DNA of 64,000 nt. Origin: an uncultured bacterium. Lineage in GTDB: Bacteria; Patescibacteriota; Minisyncoccia; Phycocordibacterales; GCA-2401445. A model generated the notes under the pieces. That model was not told the DNA's origin. It made no database searches and saw only the letters and a program-made list of their open reading frames with translations. Numbering within the stretch: position 1 is the first letter of the stretch; the number at the start of each line of letters is the position of its first letter. The stretch spans positions 398,661 to 462,660 of the forward strand of contig CALFYW010000016.1 of NCBI GenBank assembly GCA_937952265.1. Reading direction: 5' to 3'. Below are positions 34,449-64,000 of this stretch, piece by piece. The position numbers were made by a program, and so were the translations under genes.

Positions 34449-35612
34449 ATGAAGCATATTTTGATTTTTAGTACAAATTATCTACCCTCTCTCGGCGGTG
34501 CGGAGATTGCCGTAAAAGAGATTACGGATCGTATTCCTCGTGATCAATATTCATTCTCCATGATTACGGCTCGAATGTCTCGAAAAAATCCGGCACAAGA
34601 AGTTGTTGGAAACATCTCCGTATATCGGGTTGGGTTTGGTATTTGGTTTGATAAATTCCTTTTACCTTTTTTGGGAATGCGCGTTGCGCGTTCAATACAT
34701 AGCAGACAGCCGATCTCTCTTTTGTGGTCAATTATGGCAAGTCAGGGAGGAATTGCGGCGGTGCGTTTTAAACGCGTATTTCCAAAAATGAAGCTCCTGC
34801 TCACCCTTCAAGAAGGTGATGAAGAGACGCATCTCAGGCGCTATGTACTCGGTATTACATTTTTATACCGTCTTTTTATTCAACCTTTCTATCATTCAGT
34901 TTTTTTTGCCGCCGATTCAATTACGGTAATTAGTAACTATTTGAAAGCGCGTGCGGAGAGAATTGGGGTCCAGGTTCCAATTATCCGGATTCCAAATGGG
35001 GTAGATGTGGCACATTTCGAAAACCATGATTCTTGTTCAAAAGAAGTGTATCAAGGCAAAAAGGAAGGTGTCCGTTATCTTGTTACCGTATCACGTCTGG
35101 TGGAAAAGAATGGAGTCGATGATTTAATTAGCGCTTTTGCGCTACTTCCGAATACGACTCGTCTGGTGATTATCGGTACTGGTAAAGAGTATAAAAGGTT
35201 GTTACAGCAAACAATGCGGTTGGGAGTTAAAGATCGCGTTGATTTCTTAGGTATGATTCAGCACGAGATACTCCCGTGTTATTTAAAAGACGCGGATGTA
35301 TTTGTTCGGACATCACGCTCTGAAGGATTAGGAAACGCATTCCTTGAAGCAATGGCATCAGGTATTCCGGTAGTTGGTACTCCTGTTGGAGGTATTACTG
35401 ATTTTCTTCAACATAGGGTTACTGGATTTATAGCCCGTGTCGGAGATCCGGATGACATTAAACAGAAGATCCTATCCGCGTTAGAGGAAAATGAGTCGCG
35501 TTTACAAATACTGAATAACGCCCGTGCTTTGATCGATCGAGAGTATAAATGGAGTGTTATCGTCTCTCGCTTTGAGAAAGAAGTCCTTGATAAACTCACC
35601 ATGGGTCAGTAG
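34449..35612 (+). CDS. Glycosyltransferase family 4 (GT-B).
   Basis: C-terminal RTSRSEGLGNAFLEAMASGIPVVGT (E-x7-E) motif. Confidence 0.75.
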   Translation: MKHILIFSTNYLPSLGGAEIAVKEITDRIPRDQYSFSMITARMSRKNPAQEVVGNISVYRVGFGIWFDKFLLPFLGMRVARSIHSRQPISLLWSIMASQGGIAAVRFKRVFPKMKLLLTLQEGDEETHLRRYVLGITFLYRLFIQPFYHSVFFAADSITVISNYLKARAERIGVQVPIIRIPNGVDVAHFENHDSCSKEVYQGKKEGVRYLVTVSRLVEKNGVDDLISAFALLPNTTRLVIIGTGKEYKRLLQQTMRLGVKDRVDFLGMIQHEILPCYLKDADVFVRTSRSEGLGNAFLEAMASGIPVVGTPVGGITDFLQHRVTGFIARVGDPDDIKQKILSALEENESRLQILNNARALIDREYKWSVIVSRFEKEVLDKLTMGQ

Positions 35613-35634
35613 TATTGGCAGGGGTTTAAACGTT

Positions 35635-36744
35635 ATGGATTATAAAAATAAACGACGAATTCTTATTGCAACGGGTATCTTTCCTCCTGATATTGGAGGG
35701 CCTGCAACCTATAGTGCGTTACTAGAGAAAGAGCTTACCACTCGAGGTTTTACCGTAAACATCGCATCATTTTCTTCGGTGAGAAAATGGCCTCGCCTGA
35801 TTCGGCATAGTATCTTTTTTTTACGAGTGATAAAACGGGCGTGCTCTGCTGATACTGTTTTTGCCCAGGATCCAGTGAGTGTTGGATTCCCCGCATATTG
35901 CGCGGCGCGACTGTGTAGGCGTCGATTTGTCCTCAAGGTGGTAGGAGATTATGCATGGGAGCAGTATGCGTTAGCACATCCTCATAATTTCCCTACGATT
36001 GAAGATTTTCAGCACCTTTCTCTCGGTGGTATCACACTGCTTCGTCGCACGATAGAGCGATTTGTGGCTCGACACGCAGATGCGGTTGTGGTACCAAGCA
36101 TGTTTCTCAAGAAAATCATATTATCATGGGGGGTCTCAGCTGAACGGGTGCATGTGATTTACAATGCAGCCAATCTCCCAGATAGAGAGAATCATGATCC
36201 CCTCCTTTCAATCCCAGAAGGAGAACCGCTATTAATGAGTGCGGGACGAGAGGTTCCTTGGAAAGGCTTCGATCAGATTATTGACTCATTAACATTACTC
36301 GAGAAGAAATTTCCTCGCGTTAAACTTCTGCTTATTGGTGATGGGCCGGATCGGAGACGTCTTCAAGAAAAGGTAAGAGAACATAAAGTTGAACATCTGG
36401 TAGTGTTTCTAGGTAATTTAGAGAGAGAAACCCTCTTTAGGTATTTATCTTCTGCTGATATTTTTATTTTGAACACCCTCTATGAAGGTTTCCCTCATCA
36501 GATTCTTGAGGTTATGCATCTTGGTGTGCCTATTATTACGACTGATGTTGGTGGTATACGGGAATTAGTAGATGAGAGATCGGTGTGTTTTGTAAAGCCG
36601 AAAAATACCGAGGCATTGGTGAAAGCAGTAATATCAGTCCTTGGGGAATCTAGTATGAGAACGGAACGTATTGCCAACGCAAAAAAACGGGCAGCATCTT
36701 TTACAAGTCGTGATATGATTACTTCGCTTTTGCCACTCTTATGA
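35635..36744 (+). CDS. Glycosyltransferase family 4.
   Basis: EGFPHQILEVMHLGVPIITTDVGGIRELV. Start placed at the internal Met (MDYKNKRR) rather than the track start 35554, which overlaps the upstream gene. Confidence 0.7.
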   Translation: MDYKNKRRILIATGIFPPDIGGPATYSALLEKELTTRGFTVNIASFSSVRKWPRLIRHSIFFLRVIKRACSADTVFAQDPVSVGFPAYCAARLCRRRFVLKVVGDYAWEQYALAHPHNFPTIEDFQHLSLGGITLLRRTIERFVARHADAVVVPSMFLKKIILSWGVSAERVHVIYNAANLPDRENHDPLLSIPEGEPLLMSAGREVPWKGFDQIIDSLTLLEKKFPRVKLLLIGDGPDRRRLQEKVREHKVEHLVVFLGNLERETLFRYLSSADIFILNTLYEGFPHQILEVMHLGVPIITTDVGGIRELVDERSVCFVKPKNTEALVKAVISVLGESSMRTERIANAKKRAASFTSRDMITSLLPLL

Positions 36745-37877
36745 AATTGTTAATGATATCAAGTGATCAGAAAATATTTGAGGACAATAGTCCGGTACGG
36801 CAACGTATGGAAGCGTTTAGTAGTTCAGTTGACATGCTCCATATCTTAGTGATTGCGCGTCGCCATACCACTGAAGCGCCTGTTGTGTCTGGAAAGAAGA
36901 TGGTGATATATCCGATCACTATTAATTTTTGGGCTTTTAAGAAAATTTTTCTCGCGCTTCGAGAAGCGCGAGAAATCGTCCAAGCTGATATAACAGGGAG
37001 GTGGGTAGTCACTGCGCAAGACCCTTTTTTTATGGGGTTATTTGGATGGCTCATTGCGCGTAAAAAAATTCCACTTGAGCTTCAGGTGCACACTGATATT
37101 GGGAGTCCTTTTTTCGTCACAGAATCAATAATGAATCGAATAAAATTATCTCTTGCACGATTCCTCCTCCCGCGTGCGAGTCTTGTTCGTGTCGTATCAG
37201 TGCGTGTTAAAAATGCGCTCCTGCGTGATTTTAAGGTCTCTGAAGATCGTATTGTAGTATTGCCGGTATATGTGGATCCAAACCGAAGTGCTTTTCCCCA
37301 AGATGAGACCATGAAGAAACCGTATCCGATTACGATCCTCATGATGTCTCGACTTACCCCTGAAAAAGATTTTATCACCGCGCTCCGCGCATTTAAAATT
37401 GTCGCGCAAAAAAATCCAGACGCAGGGCTCCTTATCGTAGGGGATGGTCCAGACAAGAATCTCATTCAGAGGAAAGTTAATGATTTCTCACTTTTTCGAA
37501 AAGTTACTTTTTATCCGTGGAGTAGTGCGATTGGAACCTATTTTAAGCATGCTGATATTTTTCTGTTAACTTCTCGATATGAAGGATACGGAATGACTCT
37601 TATTGAAAGTGGGATGGCACGATGCCCGATTGTGACGACCGATGTTGGTATTGTTGGTGAACTTATTCAGGATCGCCAAAGTGCGCTCGTATGTCGCGTT
37701 GGAGACCATCGCTCTCTGGCACGAGCATTACAAGAGCTTATTGATGAACCTTCTCTGCGCGAAGCACTGCGCTCTCATTTTCGTGAATCTCTAACCCGAC
37801 ACCTTCCTGCGAACCAAGATATGTATCTTGCCCAATACAAACTCGCACTCCAGCGACTTTTTAGTGTTACCTTATGA
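36741..37877 (+). CDS. Glycosyltransferase family 4.
   Basis: SRYEGYGMTLIESGMARCPIVTTDVGIVGELI. ATGA overlap with the upstream gene. Confidence 0.75.
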   Translation: MKLLMISSDQKIFEDNSPVRQRMEAFSSSVDMLHILVIARRHTTEAPVVSGKKMVIYPITINFWAFKKIFLALREAREIVQADITGRWVVTAQDPFFMGLFGWLIARKKIPLELQVHTDIGSPFFVTESIMNRIKLSLARFLLPRASLVRVVSVRVKNALLRDFKVSEDRIVVLPVYVDPNRSAFPQDETMKKPYPITILMMSRLTPEKDFITALRAFKIVAQKNPDAGLLIVGDGPDKNLIQRKVNDFSLFRKVTFYPWSSAIGTYFKHADIFLLTSRYEGYGMTLIESGMARCPIVTTDVGIVGELIQDRQSALVCRVGDHRSLARALQELIDEPSLREALRSHFRESLTRHLPANQDMYLAQYKLALQRLFSVTL

Positions 37878-38908
37878 ACATTTTAGTAATTACTCAAAAA
37901 GTAGATCAAGATGATACCGTCCTTGGATTTTTTCATGGCTGGCTAAACGCATTGGGAGAAAAGTTTGACCATGTCTCGGTGATTTGTCTTGAGAAAGGAT
38001 CCACCGATTTACCTCAAGATATGCCAGTGTATTCCTTAGGAAAGGAATCGGGATTTTCGCGTATTCGTTATGTATGGAATTTATTTTTTTATCTTGGAAA
38101 ACTTCACCATCGTTATGATTGCGTATTAGTACACATGAATTATGAGTACGTACTTTTGGCTGGTTGGTGGTGGAGACTGTTTGGGCGGAAGATTGGATTT
38201 TGGTATAACCATACATACGGAAATATCTTTTCTCGTATTGCATTCATGATTGCGCACCGAGTTTTTCATACATCCCCCTTTGCTTTTTCAGCAGGAAGGT
38301 CAAACTCAGTATCTATGCCGGCTGGGATTGATACAAAACTTTTTTCAACTACTCAAAATCAAGTTCCTAACACTATTCTTTTTGTAGGTCGTATTGCTCC
38401 CGTGAAAGGGCTCATCACCTTAATTAAGGCTGTTCAACTTTTAGTTCAAAGGGGTGTTTCGGTTTCTCTTAACATATATGGAGAAGCGCTTTCTCGAGAC
38501 AGAAAGTATCAGGAGCGTGTTCACGTAGAGGCTCAAAATTTAGTGACACGTGGAATAGTGAAATTCCATAACGGGGTAGCCTATGATCAGGTACCGCAAT
38601 TATTTGCTTCACATGAGTTTTTTGTTAACCTCACTCCAAAGGGAAATTTTGATAAGACCGTGTTAGAGGCTATGGCTAGTGGTGCAATACCGGTGGTTTC
38701 AAGCACGGCATTCTCAGACCTCTTACCCCCACCCACTTTTTTTAAAGAGCATGACGCGGACGATCTTGCTCGCCAGCTCGAATATTTAATGAAGCTCTCT
38801 TTCGAGGAGAAGTCGAAGATTAGAGGGTTGTTACGCAAACGTGTCGAGAAGAAGCATGATCTCCATGTGCTCGTGTCGCGGTTAGCGGAAGAATTTGATA
38901 CATTATGA
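37874..38908 (+). CDS. Glycosyltransferase (GT4-like).
   Basis: FVGRIAPVKG...TVLEAMASGAIPVVSS. ATGA overlap. Confidence 0.6.
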   Translation: MNILVITQKVDQDDTVLGFFHGWLNALGEKFDHVSVICLEKGSTDLPQDMPVYSLGKESGFSRIRYVWNLFFYLGKLHHRYDCVLVHMNYEYVLLAGWWWRLFGRKIGFWYNHTYGNIFSRIAFMIAHRVFHTSPFAFSAGRSNSVSMPAGIDTKLFSTTQNQVPNTILFVGRIAPVKGLITLIKAVQLLVQRGVSVSLNIYGEALSRDRKYQERVHVEAQNLVTRGIVKFHNGVAYDQVPQLFASHEFFVNLTPKGNFDKTVLEAMASGAIPVVSSTAFSDLLPPPTFFKEHDADDLARQLEYLMKLSFEEKSKIRGLLRKRVEKKHDLHVLVSRLAEEFDTL

Positions 38909-40050
38909 TGAAGAAGATTTATTATATTGCAAATGCTCGGATGCCAACCGAACGAGCTCATGGTATACAACTTGCAAAGATGTGCGAAGCATTTCTTGAT
39001 ATTGGTGTTCCACTAACGCTCGTCGTTCCAAAACGTAAAACAGTAGGAGAGCAGGTCGCGTCTTTTTATGGACTTGCGAGAGAAATTCCAATCGTGAAGC
39101 TCCCTATTATCGACACGTTTCTTTTTGGTCGTCTCGGTTTTATTTTTGGGACGATTTCTTTTATGGCATCGTATAGCGTATTCCTTCTTCGGAAGAAACT
39201 CTCCGGGGAGGACTTTGTGGTATATACCATTGATATGGATCAGTTTTCATTTTTGCCACTCATTATATTTAATATTCCATATGTGATTGAAGTACACGAT
39301 GCAAAGCCGAAACGCTTTTTATTTCGGCTTTTATTTCGGCGTGCTCGGGCAGTGATGGTTATCAATCGTTTAATTCTGGAAAAGATCCATCGTTATTTTA
39401 ATGTGCCGAAACACCATATCTTTGTGGTCCCGAACGCCATTGATCCAAATTTTATGAATAAGGCTCAGCTAAGAGATGCTTTTCGAAAGAAAGAAGGTAT
39501 TCCACCTAAAGCGTTTCTTCTCTTATACGTGGGAAAATTTTACGAATGGAAAGGTTTTGAGATTTTATATCAACTCGCTCAAGACCTTGATCCTTCCGTA
39601 AACATTGGGTTGGTTGGAGGATCAAAGGAAGAACTCGAAGAGTTAATTGGAAAGCATGTCCCCGAGAATATATTTTGTTTTGGAGCTCGGCCTTATGAAG
39701 AGGTGCCGTCCTGGATCGAGGCTTCGGATGCGTTACTCGTGCTTGGAACTAAAGCAAATGAGTATTCTTATTACCATACATCCCCGATGAAATTATTTGA
39801 ATATCTTGTTTCGGGTCGCCCAATTATTGCAAGTAAGACCCCGGCGATTTGTGATATTGTGAGTGAGAAGGAAGTTTTATTTTATATGCCTGATGATAAG
39901 GAAGATTTAAAGCGCGCTATCTTACGTGTTCAATCGAACCCAGCATCCTTCCATAATCGAGTAAAAGCCGCAAAGGAGTTAAGCACCTCATTTACCTGGC
40001 ATTCTCGAGCGAAGAAAATTAATCAATTTATAAAGGACCGACTATCATGA
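38905..40050 (+). CDS. Glycosyltransferase family 4.
   Basis: SPMKLFEYLVSGRPIIASKTP. ATGA overlap. Confidence 0.65.
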   Translation: MMKKIYYIANARMPTERAHGIQLAKMCEAFLDIGVPLTLVVPKRKTVGEQVASFYGLAREIPIVKLPIIDTFLFGRLGFIFGTISFMASYSVFLLRKKLSGEDFVVYTIDMDQFSFLPLIIFNIPYVIEVHDAKPKRFLFRLLFRRARAVMVINRLILEKIHRYFNVPKHHIFVVPNAIDPNFMNKAQLRDAFRKKEGIPPKAFLLLYVGKFYEWKGFEILYQLAQDLDPSVNIGLVGGSKEELEELIGKHVPENIFCFGARPYEEVPSWIEASDALLVLGTKANEYSYYHTSPMKLFEYLVSGRPIIASKTPAICDIVSEKEVLFYMPDDKEDLKRAILRVQSNPASFHNRVKAAKELSTSFTWHSRAKKINQFIKDRLS

Positions 40051-41135
40051 GAATTGGCATTTTCCTTCATCCTTATAATGAAAAAAAACCAGCAGGATTA
40101 GGCAGGTTTATTTTCTATTTAAGCAGGCACTTGATTGAAAACGCGCCGCAACACACCTTTTACCTTTTTGTTAAAAGTGCCCCAAAGGTGAAGCCGGATA
40201 TCTCTGGTTCAAACTGGTCTGTCATAGAATGCGGCCGCGGATTATTTTGGATGGATCGTGGAATTTCAAAAGCGCCAAAAGCTGATATATACCTTTTTAA
40301 CACACCAATAATACCTGTTTGGAGAAGCGTGAAAAAAAGTGTGGTAATTGCGCTTGATTTTGCCTATCTTGATTTCCACTCTCCGGGCATACTACACGCG
40401 TTAAAACGATACATCCTTAAACAATACCACCGCTTCTCTCTTAAACGTTCTGATCAGATAATTGCAATCTCGCACGCGACAGAGGGGGATGTGATTCAGA
40501 GGTTTCATATTCCTCAACAAAAAATTCGTGTTATCTACCCCGGTTTTTCATCGGTGTGTGAGATAAGCCCTAAATATGTGTCGGTACCCAAACCATTTTT
40601 TCTTTTCATTGGGGTGATAAAAGAGAGGAAGAATGTACATGGAGTTATCGAGGCTTTTATAAAGCTTCTAAAAGAGGATGCGACAGTGTCTCTTGTGGTT
40701 GCGGGTAATGGAGAGGGGGATTACTATGAGCAGATTATATCGCGGGTAAAAACCGCGAATGCTCTTAATCGAATTTATTTTCTAGGTCATATTTCAGCAG
40801 CAGAAGTTTCTTATCTTTTTCAAAATGCGCGAGCGTTAGTATTCCCGAGTTTAACAGAAGGGTTTGGTTTTCCAGTACTTGAGGGTATGGAATGTGGTAT
40901 TCCCGTCATTACGTCAAATAGTTCGTCTTTAGTTGAGCTCGGAGGTGATGCCGCGTATTTAGTTGATCCGCGTGATCCCGAATCAATCTATAAGGGGATG
41001 AAAGCACTGCTTTATGATGAGAATATCCATCAAAAATTGATTCTTCGCGGTTACGAGCAAGTTAAAAAATTTTCTTGGAATCGTTCAGCCCGAGAATTTT
41101 TATTAGTGCTAGAAGAATTATGCGGCCAGAAATAA
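40047..41135 (+). CDS. Glycosyltransferase family 4.
   Basis: LTEGFGFPVLEGMECGIPVITSN. ATGA overlap. Confidence 0.75.
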   Translation: MRIGIFLHPYNEKKPAGLGRFIFYLSRHLIENAPQHTFYLFVKSAPKVKPDISGSNWSVIECGRGLFWMDRGISKAPKADIYLFNTPIIPVWRSVKKSVVIALDFAYLDFHSPGILHALKRYILKQYHRFSLKRSDQIIAISHATEGDVIQRFHIPQQKIRVIYPGFSSVCEISPKYVSVPKPFFLFIGVIKERKNVHGVIEAFIKLLKEDATVSLVVAGNGEGDYYEQIISRVKTANALNRIYFLGHISAAEVSYLFQNARALVFPSLTEGFGFPVLEGMECGIPVITSNSSSLVELGGDAAYLVDPRDPESIYKGMKALLYDENIHQKLILRGYEQVKKFSWNRSAREFLLVLEELCGQK

Positions 41136-42253
41136 GAAAAAAAATTTTAGTATCCTTAACGTTGGTGTGTTCACCCATACTTCTCTTGCTTCTACACTTT
41201 AGAAACACCCGAAAGTCTGAAAATCCGCGAATACTAGTTATTCCGCAACTGACCCGTATTGGTGATCTCATTTCTGTCACACCGATATTTCGGGAAATCA
41301 AAAGAAAGTTCCCTCACGCGTATGTTGCTGTATTAGTGAGTAAGAAAAACATGGGAGTAGTAATTGAAAATCCTCACATTGACGAAATCATTCATTATCA
41401 AAGCATTAGGTTATTTGCTGTTTTGAGAGCAATCTATCAGGGGCATTTTGATATAAGCATTAATGCGGGCGCAACGAGCGAAGGAACCGCTATATCCCTC
41501 TGGGGCCAAATCCCAGAGCGGATCAAGCTTACCTATTCAGGTCGTCCATTGTTTGAGGTGCTCACTGATTGGATGAACACGCACTCCATGCGATACACGC
41601 ATCAAACGTATCTCCCATCATTTTTTCTGCAACTTCTACATCCTCTTGGGATTAAGGCAGAGAATACCGATCCTGAAGTTTTCGTGACTCATCGTGGCAG
41701 AAAAGTGCGCGATAATTTTCTGGTCGAGAAAGGTATTCAGGGTGGGAAATATATCGGAATAAGTATTACGGCGGGAAATAAAATAAAAGAGTGGGGTGAT
41801 GATCGGTTTAAGGAGTTAATAAAAAAAATTCTTAACCGTTTTCCCTACTACATTTTTCTGATTGGAGGAGCGGGGGATCGGGAACGGATAATGAGCTTTC
41901 GGGAAAGATTTTCTCGAGAAGAAGCCGAACGGATCGTTCCTGTCTGCGGTATTCCGCTTGAAATACTTTCTGCCTTTTTTGAGAAACTCTCATTGTTTAT
42001 TGCGGTTGATACTGGTTTAATTCATATGGCACACGCGCTTGATGTACCACTTATTGATATTCTTGGACCGGTTGATTCAGAAGAGCTTTCCCCTAAGAGT
42101 AGGAAGAGCAGGTTACTGCTTCCGCTCAATACCAGACCGAGTGTCTTTGCTTTTAAGCGTCCCGGATCTGCGGAAGATGCTCGGCGCGCCCTTTCTTCTA
42201 TTAGTGTGGATCAGGTCGAGTCTGCATGTGAAGACCTTTTGTCGGAGAATTGA
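41119..42253 (+). CDS. Glycosyltransferase family 9 (ADP-heptose:LPS heptosyltransferase-like).
   Basis: LIGGAGDRERI...LFIAVDTGLIHMAHALDVPLIDILGP matches the GT9 C-terminal signature. Start at the Met (MRPEIRKK) at 41119. Confidence 0.65.
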
Positions 42254-42303
42254 ATCAACGAGGGTGAGAGGGTATAGTTCCATAAAGGGATATTTTATTT
42301 TTT

Positions 42304-42861: not shown

Positions 42862-42869
42862 AATGTATT

Positions 42870-44081: not shown

Positions 44082-44119
44082 TTTATCTGTTTGCGAAAGT
44101 AGGGTAGTATGTTGAAATT

Positions 44120-46842: not shown

Positions 46843-46854
46843 TATTGTTTCGTT

Positions 46855-48252: not shown

Positions 48253-48253
48253 T

Positions 48254-49216: not shown

Positions 49217-49218
49217 TT

Positions 49219-52747: not shown

Positions 52748-52770
52748 TCCTCTAAGGTTATAGTTAATAT

Positions 52771-54844: not shown

Positions 54845-55830
54845 GAAAAAAATTTTTCATACTTTTAAAAATCGGAATAAGTTTCTCTCTTATTTATCTT
54901 GTCATCACGAGAATTGATGGGGTTGAGGTGCTCTCTACGCTGCGCTCTGTTCACCCGGGCATTCTCTTACTCGCATTCCTTATTTTTGTAGTTGCCCACT
55001 ATCTTAATACCTTTAAGTGGCAGATTTTACTTAAGGTGCTTTCGATCTCTGAGGATATGGGGAAGTTATTTGAACTCCACCTTATTGGCATCTTTTATAC
55101 CATGTTTCTACCTGGGGGTCAGCTTACCGGAGAAGCAGTCAAGGCATACCGAACAAAAAATCATCTGGGACAGACTGAAAAAATAGTAGCCTCTATTCTC
55201 GTTGATCGTGTTACCGGATTGTTTCCCTTTTTAGTACTTGGGGTGGTCGGAGCATCTTTTTCGTCCGCGCTTCTTCATACAGAAGGTCGAGGCGGAATCT
55301 TTGTTGTTTTTTGGATATCAATAGTGGTTCTTTCATTAGCGGGTATTTTATTTCATAAGAGTTTTCTTCCTATGGTGAGCCGATTACAGAAACTGGCAGC
55401 TCGTCTAAATACCCCTCGCTTCATACGAGGAACCATACATAAAGTTTTGGAAGTAATAAGTGCTTATGCGGGAAAATCATCCGCGCTTTTGGCGGGTCTT
55501 TTGTTTGGTTTTTTGTTTCAAATATTAAATATCCTCGTAGTATATTTTCTGGCGTATTCAATTGGGACTCCAATCTCAATTTTTGATATTATGTGGGTCT
55601 ACTCATTAGTAAGCGTTATTCTTATTTTACCAGTGAGTATTATGGGTTTGGGGCAGCGAGAAGTGAGTTTCATTTTTTTGCTAGGTTTGGTAGGTGTCTC
55701 TGGAGTAGTCGCGACAAGTCTTTCAGTGCTTATCTTTATATTCGCACTCGCACTCGGCGTTCTAGGTGGTATTATTGAGGGGTATCATTGGTGGATTCGC
55801 GATAGAGTCCCTCCCGTTAAAAATGTTTAG
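54841..55830 (+). CDS. Flippase-like membrane protein (UPF0104 / lysyl-PG-synthase TM-region family).
   Basis: 8 TM segments. The N-terminal KIGISFSLIYLVITRID...HYLNTFKWQILLKVL pattern is typical of this family. Confidence 0.55.
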   Translation: MRKKFFILLKIGISFSLIYLVITRIDGVEVLSTLRSVHPGILLLAFLIFVVAHYLNTFKWQILLKVLSISEDMGKLFELHLIGIFYTMFLPGGQLTGEAVKAYRTKNHLGQTEKIVASILVDRVTGLFPFLVLGVVGASFSSALLHTEGRGGIFVVFWISIVVLSLAGILFHKSFLPMVSRLQKLAARLNTPRFIRGTIHKVLEVISAYAGKSSALLAGLLFGFLFQILNILVVYFLAYSIGTPISIFDIMWVYSLVSVILILPVSIMGLGQREVSFIFLLGLVGVSGVVATSLSVLIFIFALALGVLGGIIEGYHWWIRDRVPPVKNV

Positions 55831-55846
55831 TATTATTTAATTTTTT

Positions 55847-56422
55847 ATGAAGAAACTCAATCTTGGTTGTGGTGATTTTAAAAAAGAAGGATTCGTTAAC
55901 CTTGATATCAATCCACATACCCATCCCGACATTGTGTGGGACCTCGACACGTATCCGTACCCATTCGAAGACAAAACGTTCGATCTTATTGAGGCTGACC
56001 ACGTGCTTGAACATGTGAAAGACCCTTTTCGCACGATGCACGAACTTCATCGAATTTTGGGGAATGACAAAGAGTTAATTGTGCGGGTACCACACTTCTC
56101 GCGAGGATTTACGCACGCAGACCATAAGCGTGGGTTTGATGTGGGATTCCCGTTTTATTTCCAGCGGGATTTCCAGGGAGGGTATAGTGGTGTTGAATTT
56201 AAGAGTAGTAGCGTAAAGCTTACTTGGTTTTCTCAGCCATACCTCAAGAGGAGTGTGTTAGGACCTATCTCATTTTATGTTGGGTGGACGTGTGGAAAGA
56301 TATTTGATTTTTTTGCCCAACTTTCTCCCTTCTTTTGTTCACGAGTGTGGTGTTTTTGGGTTGGCGGTTTTGAACAGGTTGAATTCCGTTTTCGAGCAAT
56401 TCACACTTCGGAGGGACGCTAG
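55847..56422 (+). CDS. Class I SAM-dependent methyltransferase (paralog of the gene at 42304).
   Basis: MKKLNLGCGDFKKEGFVNLD...FDLIEADHVLEHV. Confidence 0.6.
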   Translation: MKKLNLGCGDFKKEGFVNLDINPHTHPDIVWDLDTYPYPFEDKTFDLIEADHVLEHVKDPFRTMHELHRILGNDKELIVRVPHFSRGFTHADHKRGFDVGFPFYFQRDFQGGYSGVEFKSSSVKLTWFSQPYLKRSVLGPISFYVGWTCGKIFDFFAQLSPFFCSRVWCFWVGGFEQVEFRFRAIHTSEGR

Positions 56423-56425
56423 AAA

Positions 56426-58417
56426 TTATTTTCTCTTGGTGTGAGAAAATATCTGGACCATTTCATTTTCATAAATTAGTTTTATTGAATCTGTTTCTTT
56501 AATATTTCCTCCAAGGAGTCGCTCTCGTGGGCCGAGATAGAGGTAGTCAAGATGGAAAGAATTTTCAATTGGTAGAGCAGTTTCAGTGTATTCCTGATAT
56601 TGCTCAAGAAGCTTCGTGTGGTCTTCGTCTGAAATATACGGGGGAAGGAATCCTTTATTTGTAAAAATACTTCCTGGTTGCTTTGCACGAAGCATGTCCC
56701 CATATAGGTAACTCAATCCTTCAAATTCATAGCTTGCTGGAGGATAAGTTTCTTCTGTGGCAAAGAAATGAGCAAAGACATCCGAGGTAATCATAAATAG
56801 GTGCGAGATCTCCATAAATCGTTTTGTAATTTCTTCATTTGGAGCGATAGAGGTAAGCCCGTTTGGCGCATAGAGATTGTTGAAAGTGAGGTTAGCAAGA
56901 TAGGTATTTGAAAGAAATGATGGTGTACCAACGACACTTCCTGGCTGGGTGTTTTCATTAAGCCACTTAAAACTCTCAGATTCATATTGTGGAATCATGG
57001 CACGGGCCTTGCTCTCCTCGATAAAATTTTCTTGCGCCATCATTCCTTTGATAAAAAGCAAACCAATAGCGATCCAAAGAAGGAAGATGAGGTATTCGCG
57101 GTGTGATATGTTAAACAGGTATCGAAACCCCCAGAGTATGTAAAGGAGGGTGATAAATCCTGCAATACCAAAAACTCCAAACATGACCACCGTGCTTTCG
57201 GTGGTAATCCCAATAATCGAAAGTGGAATAACCAGGGTGAGAGTGATCAAGGCGCTTTTTTTCTCCGATGGTACTTTACATTTGTGCTGGAGGAAGTAGT
57301 ACGCAAGTACGAAGAATGAAAGTGTTAATACTACTTGTTGTGGTTTTATCCAGTGATCTGGCTGAGGATTAAATCCAGTAATAATTTGGAAATTATAAAT
57401 AACAAATACTGGAAGGAGTAAGCTGGCAAACCACACACCATTATTGCTTTTTGTATTTCGATAAAGGAACAAAAAGAGAATTGCAAGTACCGCATGTTGA
57501 ACATAAAAGAATAAAACTCGAGGGTACCACAATGGTTTATGAGTATGCTCTGGTCCAAGCCTTAGTGCGAGATCTGAATATGAGGGAAGTGCTTGAACCG
57601 CAAAAAAAGAAATCCAGTATGGAATAGAAATCAAAAGTCCCAGCCCGATGATAATCGCGGTGTTTTTTACAACGCTCCATTTTTTTGAAAACGCGGCAAT
57701 CCCGAGCAAAAATACGAGTGCGATTCCAAGGTACGCCACATAATAAAAATAGGTATAAAAAAGAATCCCAAAGGAAATCCCCGCAAGGTAACAAGTGATT
57801 CTTTCATTGCGTTGTATAGTTCGATAGATGAGGTAGAGCGCAAGAATGAAAAAGGGGAGGGTCAGGAGCGGGTCCTCGAATCGATCAAGTGGAAGGTGTT
57901 TTGGTGCAAGGATTAGCTTTGTTAAGAACCATGATTGGTAGTATTCTGAAAAGAGTGGAAAAAAAGCGAGATAGCGGGGTAAGATAATAGAGAACATTGC
58001 AAAAAAAATCGCACCTGTCTTCTGTCTCGTAATTTCAAAAAAGAGCAGATAAAGAAAAAAGAAGGTTGCTATTGGAAAGAGGGCGTCACCTAGCATATTT
58101 GCGATCTGTATGTCCCCAACGAATCGAGCAAAATAACCCGCAATCAGATGGGGTATTGGTGGAAGAAAGTTTGGAGAATCTTGGTATTCCCAAACATTGA
58201 CATCACCCGCAGGCTCTCCATTAATAAATACTTCATTGACCCGTGCGGTGGTAAAGTGTCGTTCATCAAGGTTAACAAGCGTAGGATAGTATTCGATCCC
58301 TCTTTTCGAGAAGCTCTCAAAAAGGATGAAATGGGCAGTTCCATGGAGCAAGAAAATGGCAATGAGTAGGAGAAGCGCAATATGATGCCGGAATATAAAT
58401 GAAGCTAATCTTGACAT
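56426..58417 (-). CDS. Large polytopic membrane protein, GT-C-like (candidate oligosaccharyl/glycosyl transferase). The only minus-strand gene inside the glycan locus.
   Basis: 663 aa. The N-terminal ~450 aa have ~13 TM segments and are followed by a soluble C-terminal domain. Confidence 0.4.
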   Translation of the reverse strand: MSRLASFIFRHHIALLLLIAIFLLHGTAHFILFESFSKRGIEYYPTLVNLDERHFTTARVNEVFINGEPAGDVNVWEYQDSPNFLPPIPHLIAGYFARFVGDIQIANMLGDALFPIATFFFLYLLFFEITRQKTGAIFFAMFSIILPRYLAFFPLFSEYYQSWFLTKLILAPKHLPLDRFEDPLLTLPFFILALYLIYRTIQRNERITCYLAGISFGILFYTYFYYVAYLGIALVFLLGIAAFSKKWSVVKNTAIIIGLGLLISIPYWISFFAVQALPSYSDLALRLGPEHTHKPLWYPRVLFFYVQHAVLAILFLFLYRNTKSNNGVWFASLLLPVFVIYNFQIITGFNPQPDHWIKPQQVVLTLSFFVLAYYFLQHKCKVPSEKKSALITLTLVIPLSIIGITTESTVVMFGVFGIAGFITLLYILWGFRYLFNISHREYLIFLLWIAIGLLFIKGMMAQENFIEESKARAMIPQYESESFKWLNENTQPGSVVGTPSFLSNTYLANLTFNNLYAPNGLTSIAPNEEITKRFMEISHLFMITSDVFAHFFATEETYPPASYEFEGLSYLYGDMLRAKQPGSIFTNKGFLPPYISDEDHTKLLEQYQEYTETALPIENSFHLDYLYLGPRERLLGGNIKETDSIKLIYENEMVQIFSHTKRK

Positions 58418-58475
58418 CTAATTAGTTTTTACGTATAAAAAATACCATGGTAGACGGTTATACTATACTCGGGAT

Positions 58476-59855: not shown

Positions 59856-59860
59856 TACTA

Positions 59861-60646: not shown

Positions 60647-60656
60647 TAGGGAGCAC

Positions 60657-62252
60657 ATGCGAAACTTGACAGATAAAACTATTTACGATATTTTGACTCC
60701 ATTGCAGAGATCTATGGAAAGAGGAGAAACAAGCGTTTTTGATTTTAGAGATTTATTCGTCTTTGAAATGGCCAATAACCATCAAGGGAGTCTTGAGCAT
60801 GGAAAAAAGATTATTCGTGAAATGGGGGTTATTGCGAAGAAAAAAAATATACGCGGAGCTATTAAATTTCAATTTCGAGATCTAGACACATTCATCCATC
60901 CTGAATTTCGTCGAGATAAAGAAGCTAAACATATTTCCCGTTTTCTCTCCACCCGTTTGACTGAAAGTGACTTTGAGACCTTAGTGAAATATGCCCGACG
61001 ACAAGGACTTATGACGATGGCGACCCCTTTTGATGAAGTCTCAGTCGATATGATTGATCGTTTAGGAATCCAGATTATTAAAGTCGCAAGTTGCTCAGCT
61101 CATGATTGGCCACTACTCGAGAGGATCGCTCAAACAGATCGTCCGATTATTGTCTCCGTGGGTGGACTTACGCTCAAGGAAGTCGATCGTGTGGTCAGCT
61201 TCTTCGAACATCGAGGCGCACACTTCGCCCTCATGCACTGCGTGGCGGTGTATCCAACTCCTGATAAAGATTTAAATCTCAATCAAATTACGCTTATGCT
61301 AGAGCGATACCCGCATATTACTATTGGATTTTCAACGCATGAATCCCCTGATAACACGACAGCTATCGCTCTTGCGTATGCGCGCGGAGCGCGTATCTTT
61401 GAAAAACACGTTGGAGTAGCAACTGATACCATTAAACTTAATGCGTACTCTGCAGATCCGACTCAGGTAAGTCATTGGATTGATGCATATCGTAAGGCGA
61501 GGGTGTCATGTGGAGATGATGTAGAAAGGACGATTGGAACACAAGAGAAAAAAGATCTCCAAACGCTTTTACGTGGAGTGTATGTGAAGCGAAAGCTAAA
61601 AGCCGGATCAATTATTTCCAGAAACGATGTATTTTTTGCAATGCCATATCAAAGTGGCCAAATGAAGAGCGGTCGATTTAAAGAAGGTTTTACTGCTGAT
61701 CGGGATTATAAGAAAAATGAACCTCTCAATGCATACATTGAACCTCAGCGTCCTTATAAAAGAGACATTGTCTATGGAGCAATCCGTGAAGCGAAAGCGA
61801 TGCTCGCCAAAGCGCGTATTCCGCTCAATCATGAATTTTCAGTTGAAATCTCGCACCATTTTGGGCTTGATAAATTTCAGGAGACAGGTTGCATGATCAT
61901 CGAATGTATTAATCGGGAATATGCAAAGAAGCTCATTATTCAATTTCCCGGACAGAAGAATCCAGTACATTATCATAAGGAAAAAGATGAGACCTTCCAA
62001 GTTCTCTTTGGTTCACTTGAAGTAGTGGTGGAAGGGAAAAAGCGTACGCTCTTTCCTGGAGACACGCTATGGGTTCCACGTGGAGTGTGGCACGGCTTCC
62101 ATACTAATACCGGCGTCGTGTTCGAGGAGATCTCTACGGTCGCAAAGGGTAATGATTCTTATTATGTAGACAAGCAAATTGCAAGTATTCCACGAGAAAC
62201 ACGAAAAACCTACCTTCAAAACTGGGGAAGACATCAGTTTGATGAAGAGTGA
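60657..62252 (+). CDS. NeuB-family nonulosonic-acid synthase (NeuB plus SAF domains) fused to a C-terminal cupin domain.
   Basis: NeuB TIM-barrel motifs (MANNHQGSLEHGKK, MATPFDEVSVDMI, IKVASCSAHDWPLL), then a SAF domain. The tail fits both cupin motifs: G-x5-HxH-x3-E (PVHYHKEKDE) and G-x5-PxG-x2-H-x3-N (GDTLWVPRGVWHGFHTN). Start moved to the Met at 60657 to avoid overlap with the upstream gene. Confidence 0.75.
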   Translation: MRNLTDKTIYDILTPLQRSMERGETSVFDFRDLFVFEMANNHQGSLEHGKKIIREMGVIAKKKNIRGAIKFQFRDLDTFIHPEFRRDKEAKHISRFLSTRLTESDFETLVKYARRQGLMTMATPFDEVSVDMIDRLGIQIIKVASCSAHDWPLLERIAQTDRPIIVSVGGLTLKEVDRVVSFFEHRGAHFALMHCVAVYPTPDKDLNLNQITLMLERYPHITIGFSTHESPDNTTAIALAYARGARIFEKHVGVATDTIKLNAYSADPTQVSHWIDAYRKARVSCGDDVERTIGTQEKKDLQTLLRGVYVKRKLKAGSIISRNDVFFAMPYQSGQMKSGRFKEGFTADRDYKKNEPLNAYIEPQRPYKRDIVYGAIREAKAMLAKARIPLNHEFSVEISHHFGLDKFQETGCMIIECINREYAKKLIIQFPGQKNPVHYHKEKDETFQVLFGSLEVVVEGKKRTLFPGDTLWVPRGVWHGFHTNTGVVFEEISTVAKGNDSYYVDKQIASIPRETRKTYLQNWGRHQFDEE

Positions 62253-62271
62253 TTCGGTTTAAAAAGTAGGG

Positions 62272-62934
62272 ATGAAAGATATAAGATCAGAAAATATCAA
62301 GACGTTGGTTTTTGATTTTGATGGAACTCTTACTAAAGGCGGAGAATCTCTAAAGAAAGAATCATGGGTTGAGCTTGGAAAAGATGACCTCTCTTTTCAA
62401 AAAGCCCTACTTCACGCCCATAATTTTTTTGCTGGAAGTAAGAGTCGATTTGAGATTATACGATACGCGTTGGGAGAATCTTCCCATTATTCAAAAAAGA
62501 ATATTGAGGCATTGGTGGAGGGTTATGCATTTCAGTACGATCAGATTGTACAGCGTAGACTTCTAGCGAGTGGACTCATTGAAGGAACGATAAAAGGACT
62601 TGAGGTGCTTAGAAATCGATTTTCACTCTATATTAACACAAGCACCCCCGAAATCGCGGTGAAAGAGAGTTTAAAAAACTTAAATATCAGGCACCATTTT
62701 TCTGGTGTTTTCGGAAAACCTAGCTCGAAGTCTCAAAACTTAAAAAAAATAATAAAGAAAGAGAATGTGTTAGTCGAGAATGTGCTTTTTATTGGTGATA
62801 GCGAACATGATAGAGAAGTGGCGACAGATCTCGGGGTTACTTTTATTGGTGTTGCGAATAAGGAAAACCGGTGGAAGCATACTGATTTTCCCCTTATTCA
62901 TTCAGTCTTTGATTTGATCGTTTTGACCCAGTAG
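62272..62934 (+). CDS. HAD-superfamily phosphatase (candidate nonulosonate-9-phosphate or KDO-8-P-type phosphatase).
   Basis: LVFDFDGTLT motif I and a C-terminal GDSEHD motif. Confidence 0.65.
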   Translation: MKDIRSENIKTLVFDFDGTLTKGGESLKKESWVELGKDDLSFQKALLHAHNFFAGSKSRFEIIRYALGESSHYSKKNIEALVEGYAFQYDQIVQRRLLASGLIEGTIKGLEVLRNRFSLYINTSTPEIAVKESLKNLNIRHHFSGVFGKPSSKSQNLKKIIKKENVLVENVLFIGDSEHDREVATDLGVTFIGVANKENRWKHTDFPLIHSVFDLIVLTQ

Positions 62935-62961
62935 ATTTTTTGTGTAATAAATAGAGACACC

Positions 62962-63684
62962 ATGAAAATATACGCAATCATTCCCGCGCGCGGTGGGTCA
63001 AAAGGGGTCCCAGGAAAGAACACCCGCCTTTTAGCGGGAAAACCACTGATCGCATGGACCATTGAAGCCGCAAAAAAGGTACCCCATATTGATAAAGTAA
63101 TCGTGAATACCGATGACGAGGCTATTGCGCGCGTGTCGCGTGAATATGGTGCTGAAGTGTTTGATCGACCAAAAGAACTAGCAGAAGATCTAACTTTAGA
63201 TCTTCCTGTATTTGAGCATCATCTCAACACACTAAAGGAGCAGAATGATTGTCCTGACGTAATAGTTGATCTCCGCGCTACTGCCCCTTTGCGTAGGAGC
63301 GAACGTATTCGAGAGGGTATTGAGCTCTTACTTAAGCATGGTCCAGAAAAAGCAGATTCAGTACGAGCGGTGTCAAAAGCATCGAAACATCCTTACAAGA
63401 TGTGGAGGTTTCAGGATAGCTATATTGAACCACTACTTTCAGAAGACCATACAGGAATCAAGGAGCCATATAATGTGGCTCGACAAATGCTCCCGTTGGT
63501 ATATCAGAATAACGGATGTATGAATGCGTTTTGGCCACATATTGTACTTGAAAAGAATTCCATGACTGGCGCCTGTATCGCCGGATACCCAATGGAGGAT
63601 TGGGAATCAGTCAATATTGATACTGAATTCGATTTTCTTCTTGCTGAGTATCTGATGAAAAAACATCAGCATTATTTTAATTAA
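62962..63684 (+). CDS. neuA: Acylneuraminate cytidylyltransferase-family enzyme (CMP-nonulosonic acid synthetase).
   Basis: IYAIIPARGGSKGVPGKN N-terminal signature of the CMP-NeuAc/CMP-Kdo synthetase family. Confidence 0.8.
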   Translation: MKIYAIIPARGGSKGVPGKNTRLLAGKPLIAWTIEAAKKVPHIDKVIVNTDDEAIARVSREYGAEVFDRPKELAEDLTLDLPVFEHHLNTLKEQNDCPDVIVDLRATAPLRRSERIREGIELLLKHGPEKADSVRAVSKASKHPYKMWRFQDSYIEPLLSEDHTGIKEPYNVARQMLPLVYQNNGCMNAFWPHIVLEKNSMTGACIAGYPMEDWESVNIDTEFDFLLAEYLMKKHQHYFN

Positions 63685-63692
63685 ACAAATAC

Positions 63693-64000
63693 ATGTCTAT
63701 GAAAGTAAAAATTATCGGAGCGGGATCAATTGGAAATCACTTAGCGCAGGCAGCTCGTCGAATGAACTGGGAAGTCGTGGTGGTTGACCGTGATAAAAAG
63801 GCACTTAATCGAATGAAGGACGAGATCTATCCTTCTCGGTATGGGGCATGGGATCCGGAGATTTCACTTTTTGAAAGTATTAATGAGCCGAAAGGTGATT
63901 TTGATGTCATTATGGTTGGTACTCCTCCTGATGTGAGGATGAGGGTTGCCCTCGAAGCCTTAAAGGAAGAACCGCGAATTCTTCAATTAGAAAAACCTAT
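63693..64000 (+). CDS. NAD(P)-binding Rossmann-fold oxidoreductase (Gfo/Idh/MocA-like). The 5' part only; the gene continues off-window.
   Basis: MSMKVKIIGAGSIGNHLA dinucleotide-binding motif. The frame is open to the window end. Confidence 0.4.
   Translation, partial: MSMKVKIIGAGSIGNHLAQAARRMNWEVVVVDRDKKALNRMKDEIYPSRYGAWDPEISLFESINEPKGDFDVIMVGTPPDVRMRVALEALKEEPRILQLEKP

Follow-up and report, generated by a model that had tools for sequence, protein, structure and literature searches.

A 40-kb glycan-biosynthesis locus in a Parcubacteria-type genome, predicted to make acidic surface glycans by a Wzx/Wzy_C-type route

The stretch of DNA analysed here, hereafter the window, comprises 64,000 nucleotides of contig CALFYW010000016.1 (assembly GCA_937952265.1) from an uncultured bacterium, and from position 34449 to its right-hand edge it is occupied by genes for glycan biosynthesis. 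Scans with Pfam and NCBIfam models (open reading frames (ORFs) 34449–63684) identified all ORFs in 34449–64000 as glycan-assembly or accessory genes, bearing out, with small corrections, the inventory drawn up in a first-pass annotation of the same DNA. The block is free of gaps, with a coding fraction of 0.988. As that annotation described, most genes lie on one strand and many are joined by ATGA: there are six literal ATGA overlaps and a single minus-strand gene (56426–58417), separated from its divergently oriented neighbour by 58 nt. The GC content of the block is 0.411, compared with 0.436 upstream.

A contiguous locus of about 40 kb

Position 64000 is the edge of the window and not of the locus, which continues for a further 10.6 kb downstream. 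The exact CMP-transferase protein was found on ENA contig ERZ869942 NODE_236 (68 kb; L001 in our numbering, in which the other L-numbers denote compared loci) and on three Logan contigs, and over an overlap of 11,039 bp the window and L001 share 99.99 % identity. The whole locus spans around 40.1 kb and 35 genes, from window position 34449 to virtual coordinate ~74592, with the window holding its first 29.5 kb. As first proposed, the glycan-biosynthesis genes form one uninterrupted and very large locus, and the original estimate of ~30 kb was too small. The DNA examined totals 74.6 kb: the window plus the extension, in which called genes were scanned.

At the left edge, the gene for a cell-surface protein with LTD and PKD domains stops 1 nt before the first glycosyltransferase gene. 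At the right end, the stop codon of a gene encoding a Wzy_C membrane protein with tetratricopeptide repeats (TPRs) is followed by a GC hairpin with a T-run and by 749 bp free of ORFs. In L085 this 749-bp segment (12371–13119) is AT-rich and non-coding, carries the CCCCTTCGGGGG hairpin and T-run ~95 nt past the Wzy_C–TPR stop, and contains repeated 'GGTATCTCGGAT' motifs. All three listed contigs with the 789-aa Wzy_C–TPR variant break ~725–750 bp past the stop, in non-coding DNA, and this common breakpoint suggests a repeat or a strain-variable junction. A 787-aa variant is carried by the 474-kb NCBI contig. In the related locus L089 the Wzy_C–TPR gene is likewise the final glycan gene, with housekeeping genes next to it. 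Promoter and terminator scans of 34000–64000 gave counts about or below shuffle expectation (41 vs 44.9, 27 vs 33.0, 11 vs 17.6 and 15 vs 12.9) and are uninformative on operon structure; the one long operon implied in the first-pass annotation is unproven. A repeat search within the locus returned only short matches between paralogue motifs, without a mobile-element signature, and Rfam gave no match inside the locus.

The full locus encodes thirteen soluble GT-B glycosyltransferases, of which eight belong to family GT4, one to GT9 and four to a TagF-like group (Table 1). The first-pass annotation had counted at least nine GT4 enzymes; the family was correctly named, but PF00534 identifies eight (53–130 bits). 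Its single GT9 was confirmed by Pfam and its single GtrB-like GT2 by Pfam and NCBIfam, and Pfam also bore out the AsnB-type amidotransferase (49219–51105, PF00733, 326.6 bits) and four S-adenosylmethionine (SAM) methyltransferases, at 42304, 53927, 55847 and 59861/59870. The two proteins it had called GT-C-like are indeed polytopic, but both score below the gathering threshold (GA) of PMT_2 (25.6 and 17.8 bits against 26.1), and of its two flippase-like proteins one is an LPG_synthase_TM protein (142 bits) and the other a Wzx-type protein that lacks a Pfam match of its own. Because identity between paralogues is low (19–31 % among the GT4s and 23–29 % among the TagF-like proteins), both groups are, as judged from their sequences, old and distinct enzymes without recent amplification, and a recent tandem duplication of the GT4 genes is ruled out. 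NCBIfam matches of the eight GT4s and the GT9 were all generic and sub-threshold, so no specificity can be assigned to them; weak resemblances of the GT4s, to SdgA/B protein O-glycosyltransferases and to glycolipid synthases, lie far below the family cut-offs. A GT9 gene is flanked by TagF-like genes in L007 and L021 as well. We also rejected a role for the GT4s in defence, as their PF20706 (GT4-conflict) scores of 30–38 bits were always far under those of PF00534 on the same proteins and all neighbours are glycan genes.

Table 1. Genes of the glycan locus and the flanking surface-protein gene; positions are those of the window unless stated (TM, transmembrane helices)
Feature	Position	Strand	Evidence and remarks
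LTD+PKD cell-surface protein (flanking, possible substrate, non-biosynthetic)	32945–34447	+	LTD 59.7 bits; PKD_4 40.6 bits (Pfam)
GT4 a	34449–35612	+	PF00534 129.6 bits; NCBIfam generic matches only
GT4 b	35554–36744 (longest ORF; likely true start ATG 35635)	+	PF00534 127.1 bits
GT4 c	36741–37877	+	PF00534 112.8 bits; ATGA overlap
GT4 d	37874–38908	+	PF00534 59.6 bits; ATGA overlap
GT4 e	38905–40050	+	PF00534 67.2 bits; ATGA overlap
GT4 f	40047–41135	+	PF00534 118.7 bits; ATGA overlap
GT9 (heptosyltransferase family)	41075–42253 (likely start ATG 41120)	+	PF01075 64.8 bits; TIGR02201 90.4 bits, below cut-off
Short SAM methyltransferase, 185 aa	42304–42861	+	PF08241 37.6 bits; 41 % identical to the 191-aa paralogue at 55847–56422
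GT4 g	42870–44081	+	PF00534 109.3 bits
TagF-like GT-B 1 (TagF1), divergent, candidate CMP-ulosonate transferase	44120–45466	+	PF04464 55.7 bits; NF046086 (BFO_1060) 40.5 bits
TagF-like GT-B 2 (TagF2), divergent	45463–46842	+	PF04464 29.5 bits; NF046086 37.9 bits; ATGA overlap
TagF-like GT-B 3, divergent	46855–48252	+	PF04464 21.2 bits (GA 22.1); NF046086 28 bits; paralogue of TagF1, TagF2 and TagF4
GT2, polyprenyl-phosphate glycosyltransferase (ArnC/GtrB/PgfS/AglJ type)	48254–49216	+	PF00535 108.5 bits; NF007986 200.9; PgfS 166.8; two C-terminal TM
AsnB-type glutamine amidotransferase	49219–51105	+	PF00733 326.6 bits; TIGR01536 475.7 (above cut-off); TIGR03108 540
GT-C-like polytopic membrane protein (ArnT/PMT type)	51158–52747	+	PF13231 PMT_2 25.6 bits (GA 26.1); ~10 TM
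GT4 h	52771–53943	+	PF00534 53.2 bits; PF13579 47.5 bits
SAM methyltransferase, 305 aa	53927–54844	+	PF13489 82 bits
LPG_synthase_TM 'flippase-like' membrane protein	54841–55830	+	PF03706 142 bits; TIGR00374 79 bits (above cut-off); 7 TM; ATGA overlap
Short SAM methyltransferase, 191 aa	55847–56422	+	PF08241 31.1 bits
Polytopic membrane protein, 663 aa, weakly GT-C-like	56426–58417	-	PMT_2 17.8 bits, E 0.004, sub-threshold; ~15 TM
Wzx-type MOP-superfamily oligosaccharide flippase, 459 aa	58476–59855	+	Homologues and AlphaFold2 model
SAM methyltransferase, 258 aa	59870–60646	+	PF13489 71.1 bits; PF08241 71 bits
NeuB-family synthase fused to D-lyxose/D-mannose-isomerase-type cupin	60657–62252	+	PF03102 155.2 bits; PF07883 47.9 bits
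HAD-superfamily phosphatase	62272–62934	+	PF00702 53.8 bits; PF13419 49.4 bits
CMP-ulosonate synthetase (CTP_transf_3)	62962–63684	+	PF02348 92 bits; PseF model 125.8 bits, below cut-off
Gfo/Idh/MocA oxidoreductase, 355 aa (5' part in window)	63694–64000 (full: L001 10732–11799)	+	PF01408 32.1 bits
TagF-like GT-B 4 (TagF4), divergent	Beyond window	+	Paralogue of the TagF-like proteins in the window
NeuC, hydrolysing UDP-GlcNAc 2-epimerase	Beyond window	+	TIGR03568 347.1 bits (cut-off 235.9)
PAPS/APS reductase (CysH-like), directly upstream of SQD1-type synthase	Beyond window; pair at L001 14600–16483 (window-equivalent ~67561–69444)	+	NF002537 184 bits, above cut-off
Putative UDP-sulfoquinovose synthase, SQD1-type	Beyond window	+	Arabidopsis SQD1 475 bits, E 2e-141, residues 2–385; NF041015 457 (cut-off 575)
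GalE-like epimerase (SDR)	Beyond window, 5 kb downstream of the first CMP-transferase	+	
Second CMP-transferase	Beyond window	+	PF02348
Second NeuB, canonical, with SAF	Beyond window	+	PF03102 and SAF; TIGR03569 261.6 bits (cut-off 399.65); best PDB match N. meningitidis NeuB, 124 bits
Wzy_C (O-antigen ligase) membrane protein with TPRs, 789 aa, terminal gene	Beyond window	+	PF04932 67.9 bits (GA 31.7); 12 TM and C-terminal TPR array

The host is CPR-like (candidate phyla radiation), as first suggested: the closest homologues, where named, come from Parcubacteria, Paceibacteria, Sungbacteria, Taylorbacteria, Patescibacteria or an unclassified 'bacterium'. This placement uses source names rather than a phylogeny, and draws on the NeuB–cupin fusion (57–68 % identity), all 37 homologues of the Wzx protein and the top Wzy_C–TPR matches. 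Judging from the gene content, the probable function of the locus, in a member of the Parcubacteria, is the assembly of complex acidic surface glycans, one or a few in number, through a Wzx/Wzy_C-type route. We infer that such a glycan would carry, besides sulfoquinovose, an ulosonic acid resembling Kdn and an acid resembling Neu5Ac, with O-methyl and amide modifications; with four methyltransferases encoded, the original suggestion of a methylated product is probably right.

We compared all locus proteins by tblastn with 80 NeuB–cupin loci, each with 10 kb on either side. A core near the NeuB–cupin gene was conserved in both CPR and cultured non-CPR bacteria, namely the CMP-transferase (70/80 loci), the Gfo/Idh/MocA oxidoreductase (GFO; 41/80) and the HAD phosphatase (27/80). 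The Wzx and 258-aa methyltransferase genes were kept nearby in 11 of the 80 loci, all from CPR bacteria, and GT4 a–h, the 529-aa GT-C-like protein and the LPG_synthase_TM protein were rarely or never found near NeuB–cupin. The Pfam-annotated close relatives L088 and L089 contain the same parts reshuffled, one with an ABC exporter in place of Wzx, and glycan genes fill the entire 21.5-kb window of L088 and most of that of L089. The comparison sets a conserved core apart from a variable part, and the versions of the locus in related Parcubacteria are mosaic. Loci of this kind are recurrent in Parcubacteria and not unique; the investment that the first-pass annotation found striking is real, at 8.5 % of the 474-kb contig recorded for the locus proteins, but it is shared by relatives such as L088 and L089.

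These patterns of conservation are compatible both with one variable locus and with a mosaic 'glycan island', in which independent systems would lie together since surface-glycan genes cluster and exchange together. Such an island could combine a Wzx/Wzy_C oligosaccharide system with a separate GT2, LPG_synthase_TM and GT-C system for decoration, whose target might be proteins or a different polymer, and perhaps with an amidotransferase of the peptidoglycan or exopolysaccharide type. We regard it as a credible though less favoured possibility. It would account for the sharply differing conservation, from the ulosonate core (27–70 of 80 loci, across phyla) to the CPR-restricted Wzx and 258-aa methyltransferase pair and the transferases that seldom accompany NeuB–cupin; for the GT2–AsnB pair moving as a unit of its own, sometimes inverted (L014, L019 and L035); and for the reshuffled orders in relatives, even to the replacement of Wzx by an ABC exporter. 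A GC content 2.5 points under that of the flank and the one gene on the opposite strand point the same way. However, conserved precursor genes accompanied by variable transferases are the usual pattern of surface-glycan loci such as those for O-antigen and capsule, each a single system, and unequal conservation alone therefore does not demonstrate more than one product. The genes are also packed very tightly (98.8 % coding, six ATGA overlaps, intergenic terminator-like sites not above chance), and the locus has only one Wzx and one Wzy_C gene.

Predicted ulosonic acid and sulfoquinovose modules

The nonulosonic-acid module recognized in the first-pass annotation is present, with a NeuB–cupin fusion, a HAD phosphatase and a CTP_transf_3 enzyme (CMP1) encoded in succession and followed by GFO. 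The NeuB domain falls in the clade of the uncharacterised PDB entry 3g8r (294.8 bits, vs ~83 bits to NeuB or PseI). A profile built from 20 homologous C-termini matched the cupin to D-lyxose ketol-isomerase (2y0o, E 9e-9), D-lyxose/D-mannose isomerase (7nzo, 1.7e-8) and mannose-6-phosphate isomerase (7zvm, 4e-6); alignments to these isomerases span most of the profile, whereas matches to quercetinase are confined to the 48-residue core of the cupin. An invariant metal motif, HxH...E...H (P-x-H-Y-H-K-x-K-D-E...W-H-G-F), is shared by the 20 homologues. The phosphatase is of the capped HAD-IA type and not KdsC-like, and neither an aminotransferase (DegT) nor an N-acetyltransferase occurs in the conserved core of the module.

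This gene set appears to fit a Kdn-type, non-aminated pathway consisting of synthase, phosphatase and CMP-transferase without amination genes, and the likeness of the fused cupin to isomerases points indirectly to mannose or mannose 6-phosphate as substrate and Kdn or a close relative as product. The cupin would isomerise a ketose to a mannose-configured aldose (fructose or fructose 6-phosphate to mannose or mannose 6-phosphate), and the NeuB domain would condense that aldose with phosphoenolpyruvate (PEP) to yield a 3-deoxy-ulosonic acid without an amino group, either Kdn or closely related to it. The HAD phosphatase would strip the phosphate either before or after condensation, CMP1 would make the CMP-sugar, and the adjacent GFO enzyme may oxidise a hydroxyl of that CMP-sugar, by analogy with the action of ElaA on CMP-legionaminic acid. 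Known Kdn pathways, including those for the Kdn-containing teichulosonic acids of Streptomyces, follow the same scheme: a NeuB-family enzyme joins a mannose-type sugar to PEP in an aldol condensation, a HAD phosphatase and a CMP-transferase act next, and amino-sugar steps are absent. They differ from the module predicted here in that its synthase is fused to a lyxose/mannose-isomerase cupin and has a NeuB domain of the 3g8r clade, its phosphatase is of the HAD-IA rather than the KdsC-like type, and a Gfo/Idh/MocA enzyme is included.

ElaA, a Gfo/Idh/MocA enzyme, oxidises a hydroxyl of CMP-Leg5,7Ac2; its gene lies next to that of the CMP-transferase ElaB, and a short-chain dehydrogenase/reductase (SDR) completes the epimerisation (PMC13656337). 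The locus resembles this ElaA/ElaB/ElaC cassette of Acinetobacter baumannii KL49 for 8-epi-legionaminic acid in that CMP1 directly precedes GFO and a GalE-like SDR is encoded 5 kb downstream, but the substrate here would be a non-aminated ulosonate, and the pairing of GFO with the SDR is conjecture. A phmmer search of GFO against the PDB returned only a TrkA Rossmann-fold match (E 0.005), with no solved oxidoreductase detectably similar, ElaA included if its entry is present.

The NeuB–cupin fusion is widespread. More than 120 clusters of homologues (at 90 % identity) were listed from Parcubacteria-type metagenome-assembled genomes, 57–68 % identical to the protein here, and 252 stretches were confirmed in contigs of GTDB species representatives. 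Full-length relatives with 46–53 % identity occur in the cultured non-CPR bacteria Runella zeae, Salinisphaera, Desulfofustis glycolicus and Nitrosomonas halophila. Five metagenomic homologues (P0049, P0082, P0091, P0073 and P0116) are 674–930-aa fusions that also have a PF01467 and/or PF02348 domain, and would thereby unite synthase, isomerase and activation steps in one polypeptide.

Past position 64000 the genes continue on the same strand in the order GFO, TagF4, NeuC, PAPS/APS reductase, SQD1-type synthase, GalE-like epimerase, second CTP_transf_3, second NeuB and Wzy_C–TPR. NeuC, the second NeuB and the second CMP-transferase would make a CMP-Neu5Ac-type acid from UDP-GlcNAc, and the PAPS reductase would supply sulfite to the SQD1-type enzyme for UDP-sulfoquinovose. 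The CysH-like reductase is thus a likely private sulfite source for the sulfo-sugar, and the CysH–SQD1 pair was also found in L013, L017 and the gammaproteobacterial L032. The synthase matches SQD1, the enzyme of plant and cyanobacterial sulfolipid, over its full length and, like Agl3 of the Sulfolobus N-glycan, is encoded in a glycan rather than a lipid locus. It differs from both in its pairing with a PAPS/APS reductase, its occurrence in a CPR genome and a score below the NCBIfam equivalog cut-off (457 vs 575).

TagF-like proteins beside CMP-ulosonate genes

The first-pass annotation had listed three TagF-like phosphotransferases in the window. Three TagF-like paralogues are indeed encoded there, two passing PF04464 (55.7 and 29.5 bits) and the third (21.2 bits, GA 22.1) a clear paralogue of the others (23–29 % identity, E down to 1e-53), but their role as phosphotransferases is doubtful. 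A fourth, TagF4, lies beyond the window between the two ulosonate modules. Among NCBIfam models, NF046086 ('BFO_1060') was the best or only match for all 14 TagF-like proteins tested, with 28–40.5 bits for the four paralogues here and 23–62 bits for ten relatives; these scores lie under the cut-off of 200, so the proteins are non-members, and we file them neither with the PF04464 phosphotransferases nor with BFO_1060. The TarF model gave 21–24 bits only. TagF-like genes occur within 10 kb of the NeuB–cupin gene, and hence of its CMP-transferase, in 24–25 of the 80 loci, including contigs of Bacteroidota, Planctomycetota, Chloroflexota and Elusimicrobia, with diderm phyla that lack teichoic acids among them.

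The BFO_1060 family comprises TagB-like proteins genetically required for the addition of pseudaminic (Pse) or legionaminic (Leg) acid derivatives in Tannerella forsythia (PMC5420450). Its members Tanf_01245 and TFUB4_00887 are, like the proteins here, soluble TagB/TagF-like GT-Bs, and their genes stand beside CMP-Pse or CMP-Leg genes just as the TagF-like genes here stand beside CMP-ulosonate genes. They are required for terminal nonulosonic acid addition (PMC5420450), a role that is only predicted for the present proteins, which are ~450 aa in length compared with 365 positions in the model and score 23–62 bits against 200. On sequence and gene context we lean, by a little, towards the TagF-like proteins being CMP-ulosonate transferases.

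They could instead be true CDP-glycerol or CDP-ribitol transferases, in which case the product would be a teichoic-acid-like phosphodiester polymer decorated by the GT4s and methyltransferases. That TagF1 and TagF2 pass PF04464 agrees with this possibility, and a profile of 32 TagF-like sequences weakly reaches TarL (8va1, E 4.6e-6, over the C-terminal 170 aa) and Cps3D (5e-4). CPR cells are reported to be monoderm, which makes teichoic acids plausible, and some NeuB–cupin homologues carry a cytidylyltransferase domain of the TagD type (PF01467) as a further fusion partner. However, no gene for CDP-glycerol or CDP-ribitol supply (TagD, TarI or TarJ; PF01467 or IspD-type) was found in the 74.6 kb examined, where Pfam likewise detected no TagO/TagA, TagGH ABC exporter or LCP ligase; the IspD match of the first CMP-transferase, at 19.8 bits, is below GA. 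The only cytidine-activated donors encoded are the two CMP-ulosonates. Moreover, the closest curated family of every TagF-like protein tested is that of the Pse/Leg transferases, and members lie within CMP-ulosonate gene sets of Bacteroidota, Planctomycetota and Chloroflexota, phyla without teichoic acids. We therefore consider polyol-phosphate transfer unlikely, and the phosphodiester-linked polymer of the first-pass annotation, which followed from the TagF-like calls alone, doubtful.

Assembly route and biological meaning

The Wzx protein has 37 homologues, all from Patescibacteria where named and some labelled 'oligosaccharide flippase', and Polysacc_synt (PF01943) is matched by 21 of the 35 that were scanned. 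Its AlphaFold2 model (pLDDT 90.1) was matched by Foldseek to MurJ (7wax, E 1e-7) and to the lipid III flippase WzxE (9g9n, TM 0.71/0.79). The model and homologues identify the 459-aa protein as a divergent Wzx-type MOP flippase of a Patescibacteria-specific clade. Homologues of the 663-aa minus-strand protein adjoin the Wzx gene in L014, L019 and L007. The Wzy_C–TPR protein has more than 3000 homologues, from Patescibacteria wherever the source is named.

In the route that we favour, the GT4 and GT9 enzymes would build a lipid-linked oligosaccharide, the four TagF-like proteins would add CMP-activated ulosonic acids rather than polyol phosphates, methyl and amide groups would be added to the glycan, and Wzx would flip the product for the Wzy_C–TPR protein to polymerise or to ligate to a surface acceptor, either protein or wall. 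Protein O-glycosylation is an attractive outcome given the TPR array and the neighbouring Ser/Thr-rich LTD–PKD protein, although it is conjecture. The locus has much in common with Wzx/Wzy-dependent loci for O-antigens, capsules and general protein O-glycosylation, such as those for the Tannerella forsythia S-layer O-glycan and the Acinetobacter K loci with Pse or Leg: precursor modules with many GT-Bs, methyltransferases, Wzx and Wzy_C, CMP-activated nonulosonic acids, and sugar genes that are conserved among relatives with transferases that vary. It departs from them in lacking an initiating phosphoglycosyltransferase and Wzz, in belonging to a CPR bacterium without lipopolysaccharide, in the long C-terminal TPR array of its Wzy_C protein, in having four TagF-like paralogues in place of the known sialyl/Pse transferase families (GT52, GT80, KpsS and Maf), and in combining two ulosonate pathways and sulfoquinovose.

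A side system for decoration may be formed by the GT2, the LPG_synthase_TM protein and the two GT-C-like proteins, the GT2 making a polyprenyl-phosphate sugar and the GT-C proteins using such donors outside the membrane to add single sugars. As in the GtrB/ArnC and GT-C systems (Gtr O-antigen glucosylation, ArnC/ArnT and CsbB/YfhO), polytopic GT-C-like proteins and a small membrane protein of flippase-like type are encoded along with an ArnC/PgfS-like GT2 that has two TM helices at its C-terminus. Unlike in those systems, the flippase candidate is an LPG_synthase_TM (MprF-type) protein and not GtrA or ArnE/F, the GT-C assignments are sub-threshold, and the GT2 forms a tight pair with an AsnB amidotransferase. 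The two genes are 2 nt apart and remain adjacent in the CPR loci L014, L019 and L035, which suggests that they act together, for instance in amidation tied to a polyprenyl-phosphate-sugar step. We know of no described counterpart of this pair.

Several points weigh against a lipid-linked Wzx/Wzy_C route to one or a few products. That all 35 genes are co-transcribed or serve one product is unproven. No initiating phosphoglycosyltransferase (Bac_transf or Glycos_transf_4; WbaP/PglC or WecA/MraY type) was found in the 74.6 kb examined, nor a chain-length regulator or LCP ligase in window or extension, and the lipid-linked route and the acceptor are accordingly inferred; on our proposal the initiating enzyme must be encoded elsewhere. 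Sequence cannot fix the substrate of the NeuB–cupin or GFO enzyme, and many non-CPR loci lack HAD and GFO. The BFO_1060 matches are far below cut-off, and of the three TagF-like proteins in the window two exceed the threshold of the Pfam TagF model and one nearly reaches it. The fold search with the AlphaFold2 model of TagF1 gave a generic GT-B fold and did not discriminate; phmmer with TagF1 returned no PDB match at E≤1. Neither GT-C assignment reaches threshold. The lack of a phosphoglycosyltransferase would also be explained if the GT-Bs glycosylated protein or glycolipid directly in the cytoplasm, or if the GT2 started a polyprenyl-monophosphate route like that of archaeal AglJ, as neither needs such an enzyme; we judge this quite improbable, since the matches in its favour (GT2 to the AglJ model, 82.5 bits; GT4s to SdgA/B and glycolipid synthases) are all far below family cut-offs, the dedicated Wzx and Wzy_C argue for a flipped lipid-linked oligosaccharide, and initiating transferases are often unlinked from their loci, with TagO/WecA an established example.

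Several features upstream of the locus may bear on surface glycans. The LTD–PKD protein combines a signal peptide with linkers rich in Ser, Thr and Asp and a TM anchor at its C-terminus, and its gene overlaps by ATGA that of a VirD4/TraG-like coupling ATPase (31107–32948); it is possibly a glycoprotein substrate or merely a co-transcribed neighbour. At 17570–21805, an 846-aa protein with ~12–14 TM helices and TPRs arrayed at its C-terminus, whose N-terminus weakly resembles (E 2e-4) the N-terminus of Wzy_C–TPR, is directly followed by a MurJ-family flippase (PF03023, 194 bits); located 14 kb upstream of the locus, the two could constitute another ligase/flippase pair. A DUF4015 putative glycoside hydrolase (29575–30822, 351 bits) with an N-terminal TM/signal segment is encoded 3.6 kb upstream of the locus and 284 nt from the VirD4-like gene, and might trim or recycle surface glycan. 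Elsewhere in the window we noted a class A RNase P RNA on the minus strand (17063–17451, 111.7 bits, above the gathering score) between the ribonucleotide reductase and TPR membrane protein genes, a 427-aa ORF without a Pfam match even at E≤5 (10553–11836), and an 835-bp gap (28739–29575) holding only a 134-aa minus-strand ORF (28767–29171).

In kind, this is a known type of Wzx/Wzy_C surface-glycan locus. Dense packing of glycan genes is commonplace in bacteria, and no new kind of system need be invoked to explain the observations. What is unusual is the CPR host, the size relative to the genome, the co-occurrence of two ulosonic-acid pathways with sulfoquinovose, the widespread uncharacterised NeuB–isomerase fusion, the TagF-like clade tied to CMP-ulosonate genes and the Wzy_C–TPR ligase. 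CPR bacteria live attached to other cells, and their surface chemistry is nearly unknown; in the open-access full texts searched we found no paper tying Patescibacteria, Parcubacteria or CPR to nonulosonic acids, relevantly to sialic acid, or to sulfoquinovose. Tentatively, and with considerable doubt that all parts will hold together, these features could describe an undescribed, strongly anionic CPR coat containing Kdn-like and Neu5Ac-like acids and sulfoquinovose, made by two uncharacterised enzyme classes and attached to protein by Wzy_C–TPR. The NeuB–isomerase fusion would then stand for a new way of making a non-aminated nonulosonic acid, phylogenetically widespread in that it reaches from CPR to Runella, Salinisphaera, Desulfofustis and Nitrosomonas, and the divergent TagF-like clade would represent the missing CMP-ulosonate transferases or polymerases. 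If so, Wzy_C–TPR linking glycan to proteins such as LTD–PKD would be a general O-glycosylation system of CPR bacteria for host contact. From the locus a list of predicted components of a CPR surface glycan can be drawn up for testing: a pair of ulosonic acids and a sulfo-sugar, modification by methyl and amide groups, and a ligase bearing a protein-binding TPR array. As the NeuB–cupin and ulosonate-linked TagF-like families occur well beyond CPR, their characterisation would improve the annotation of glycan loci in general.

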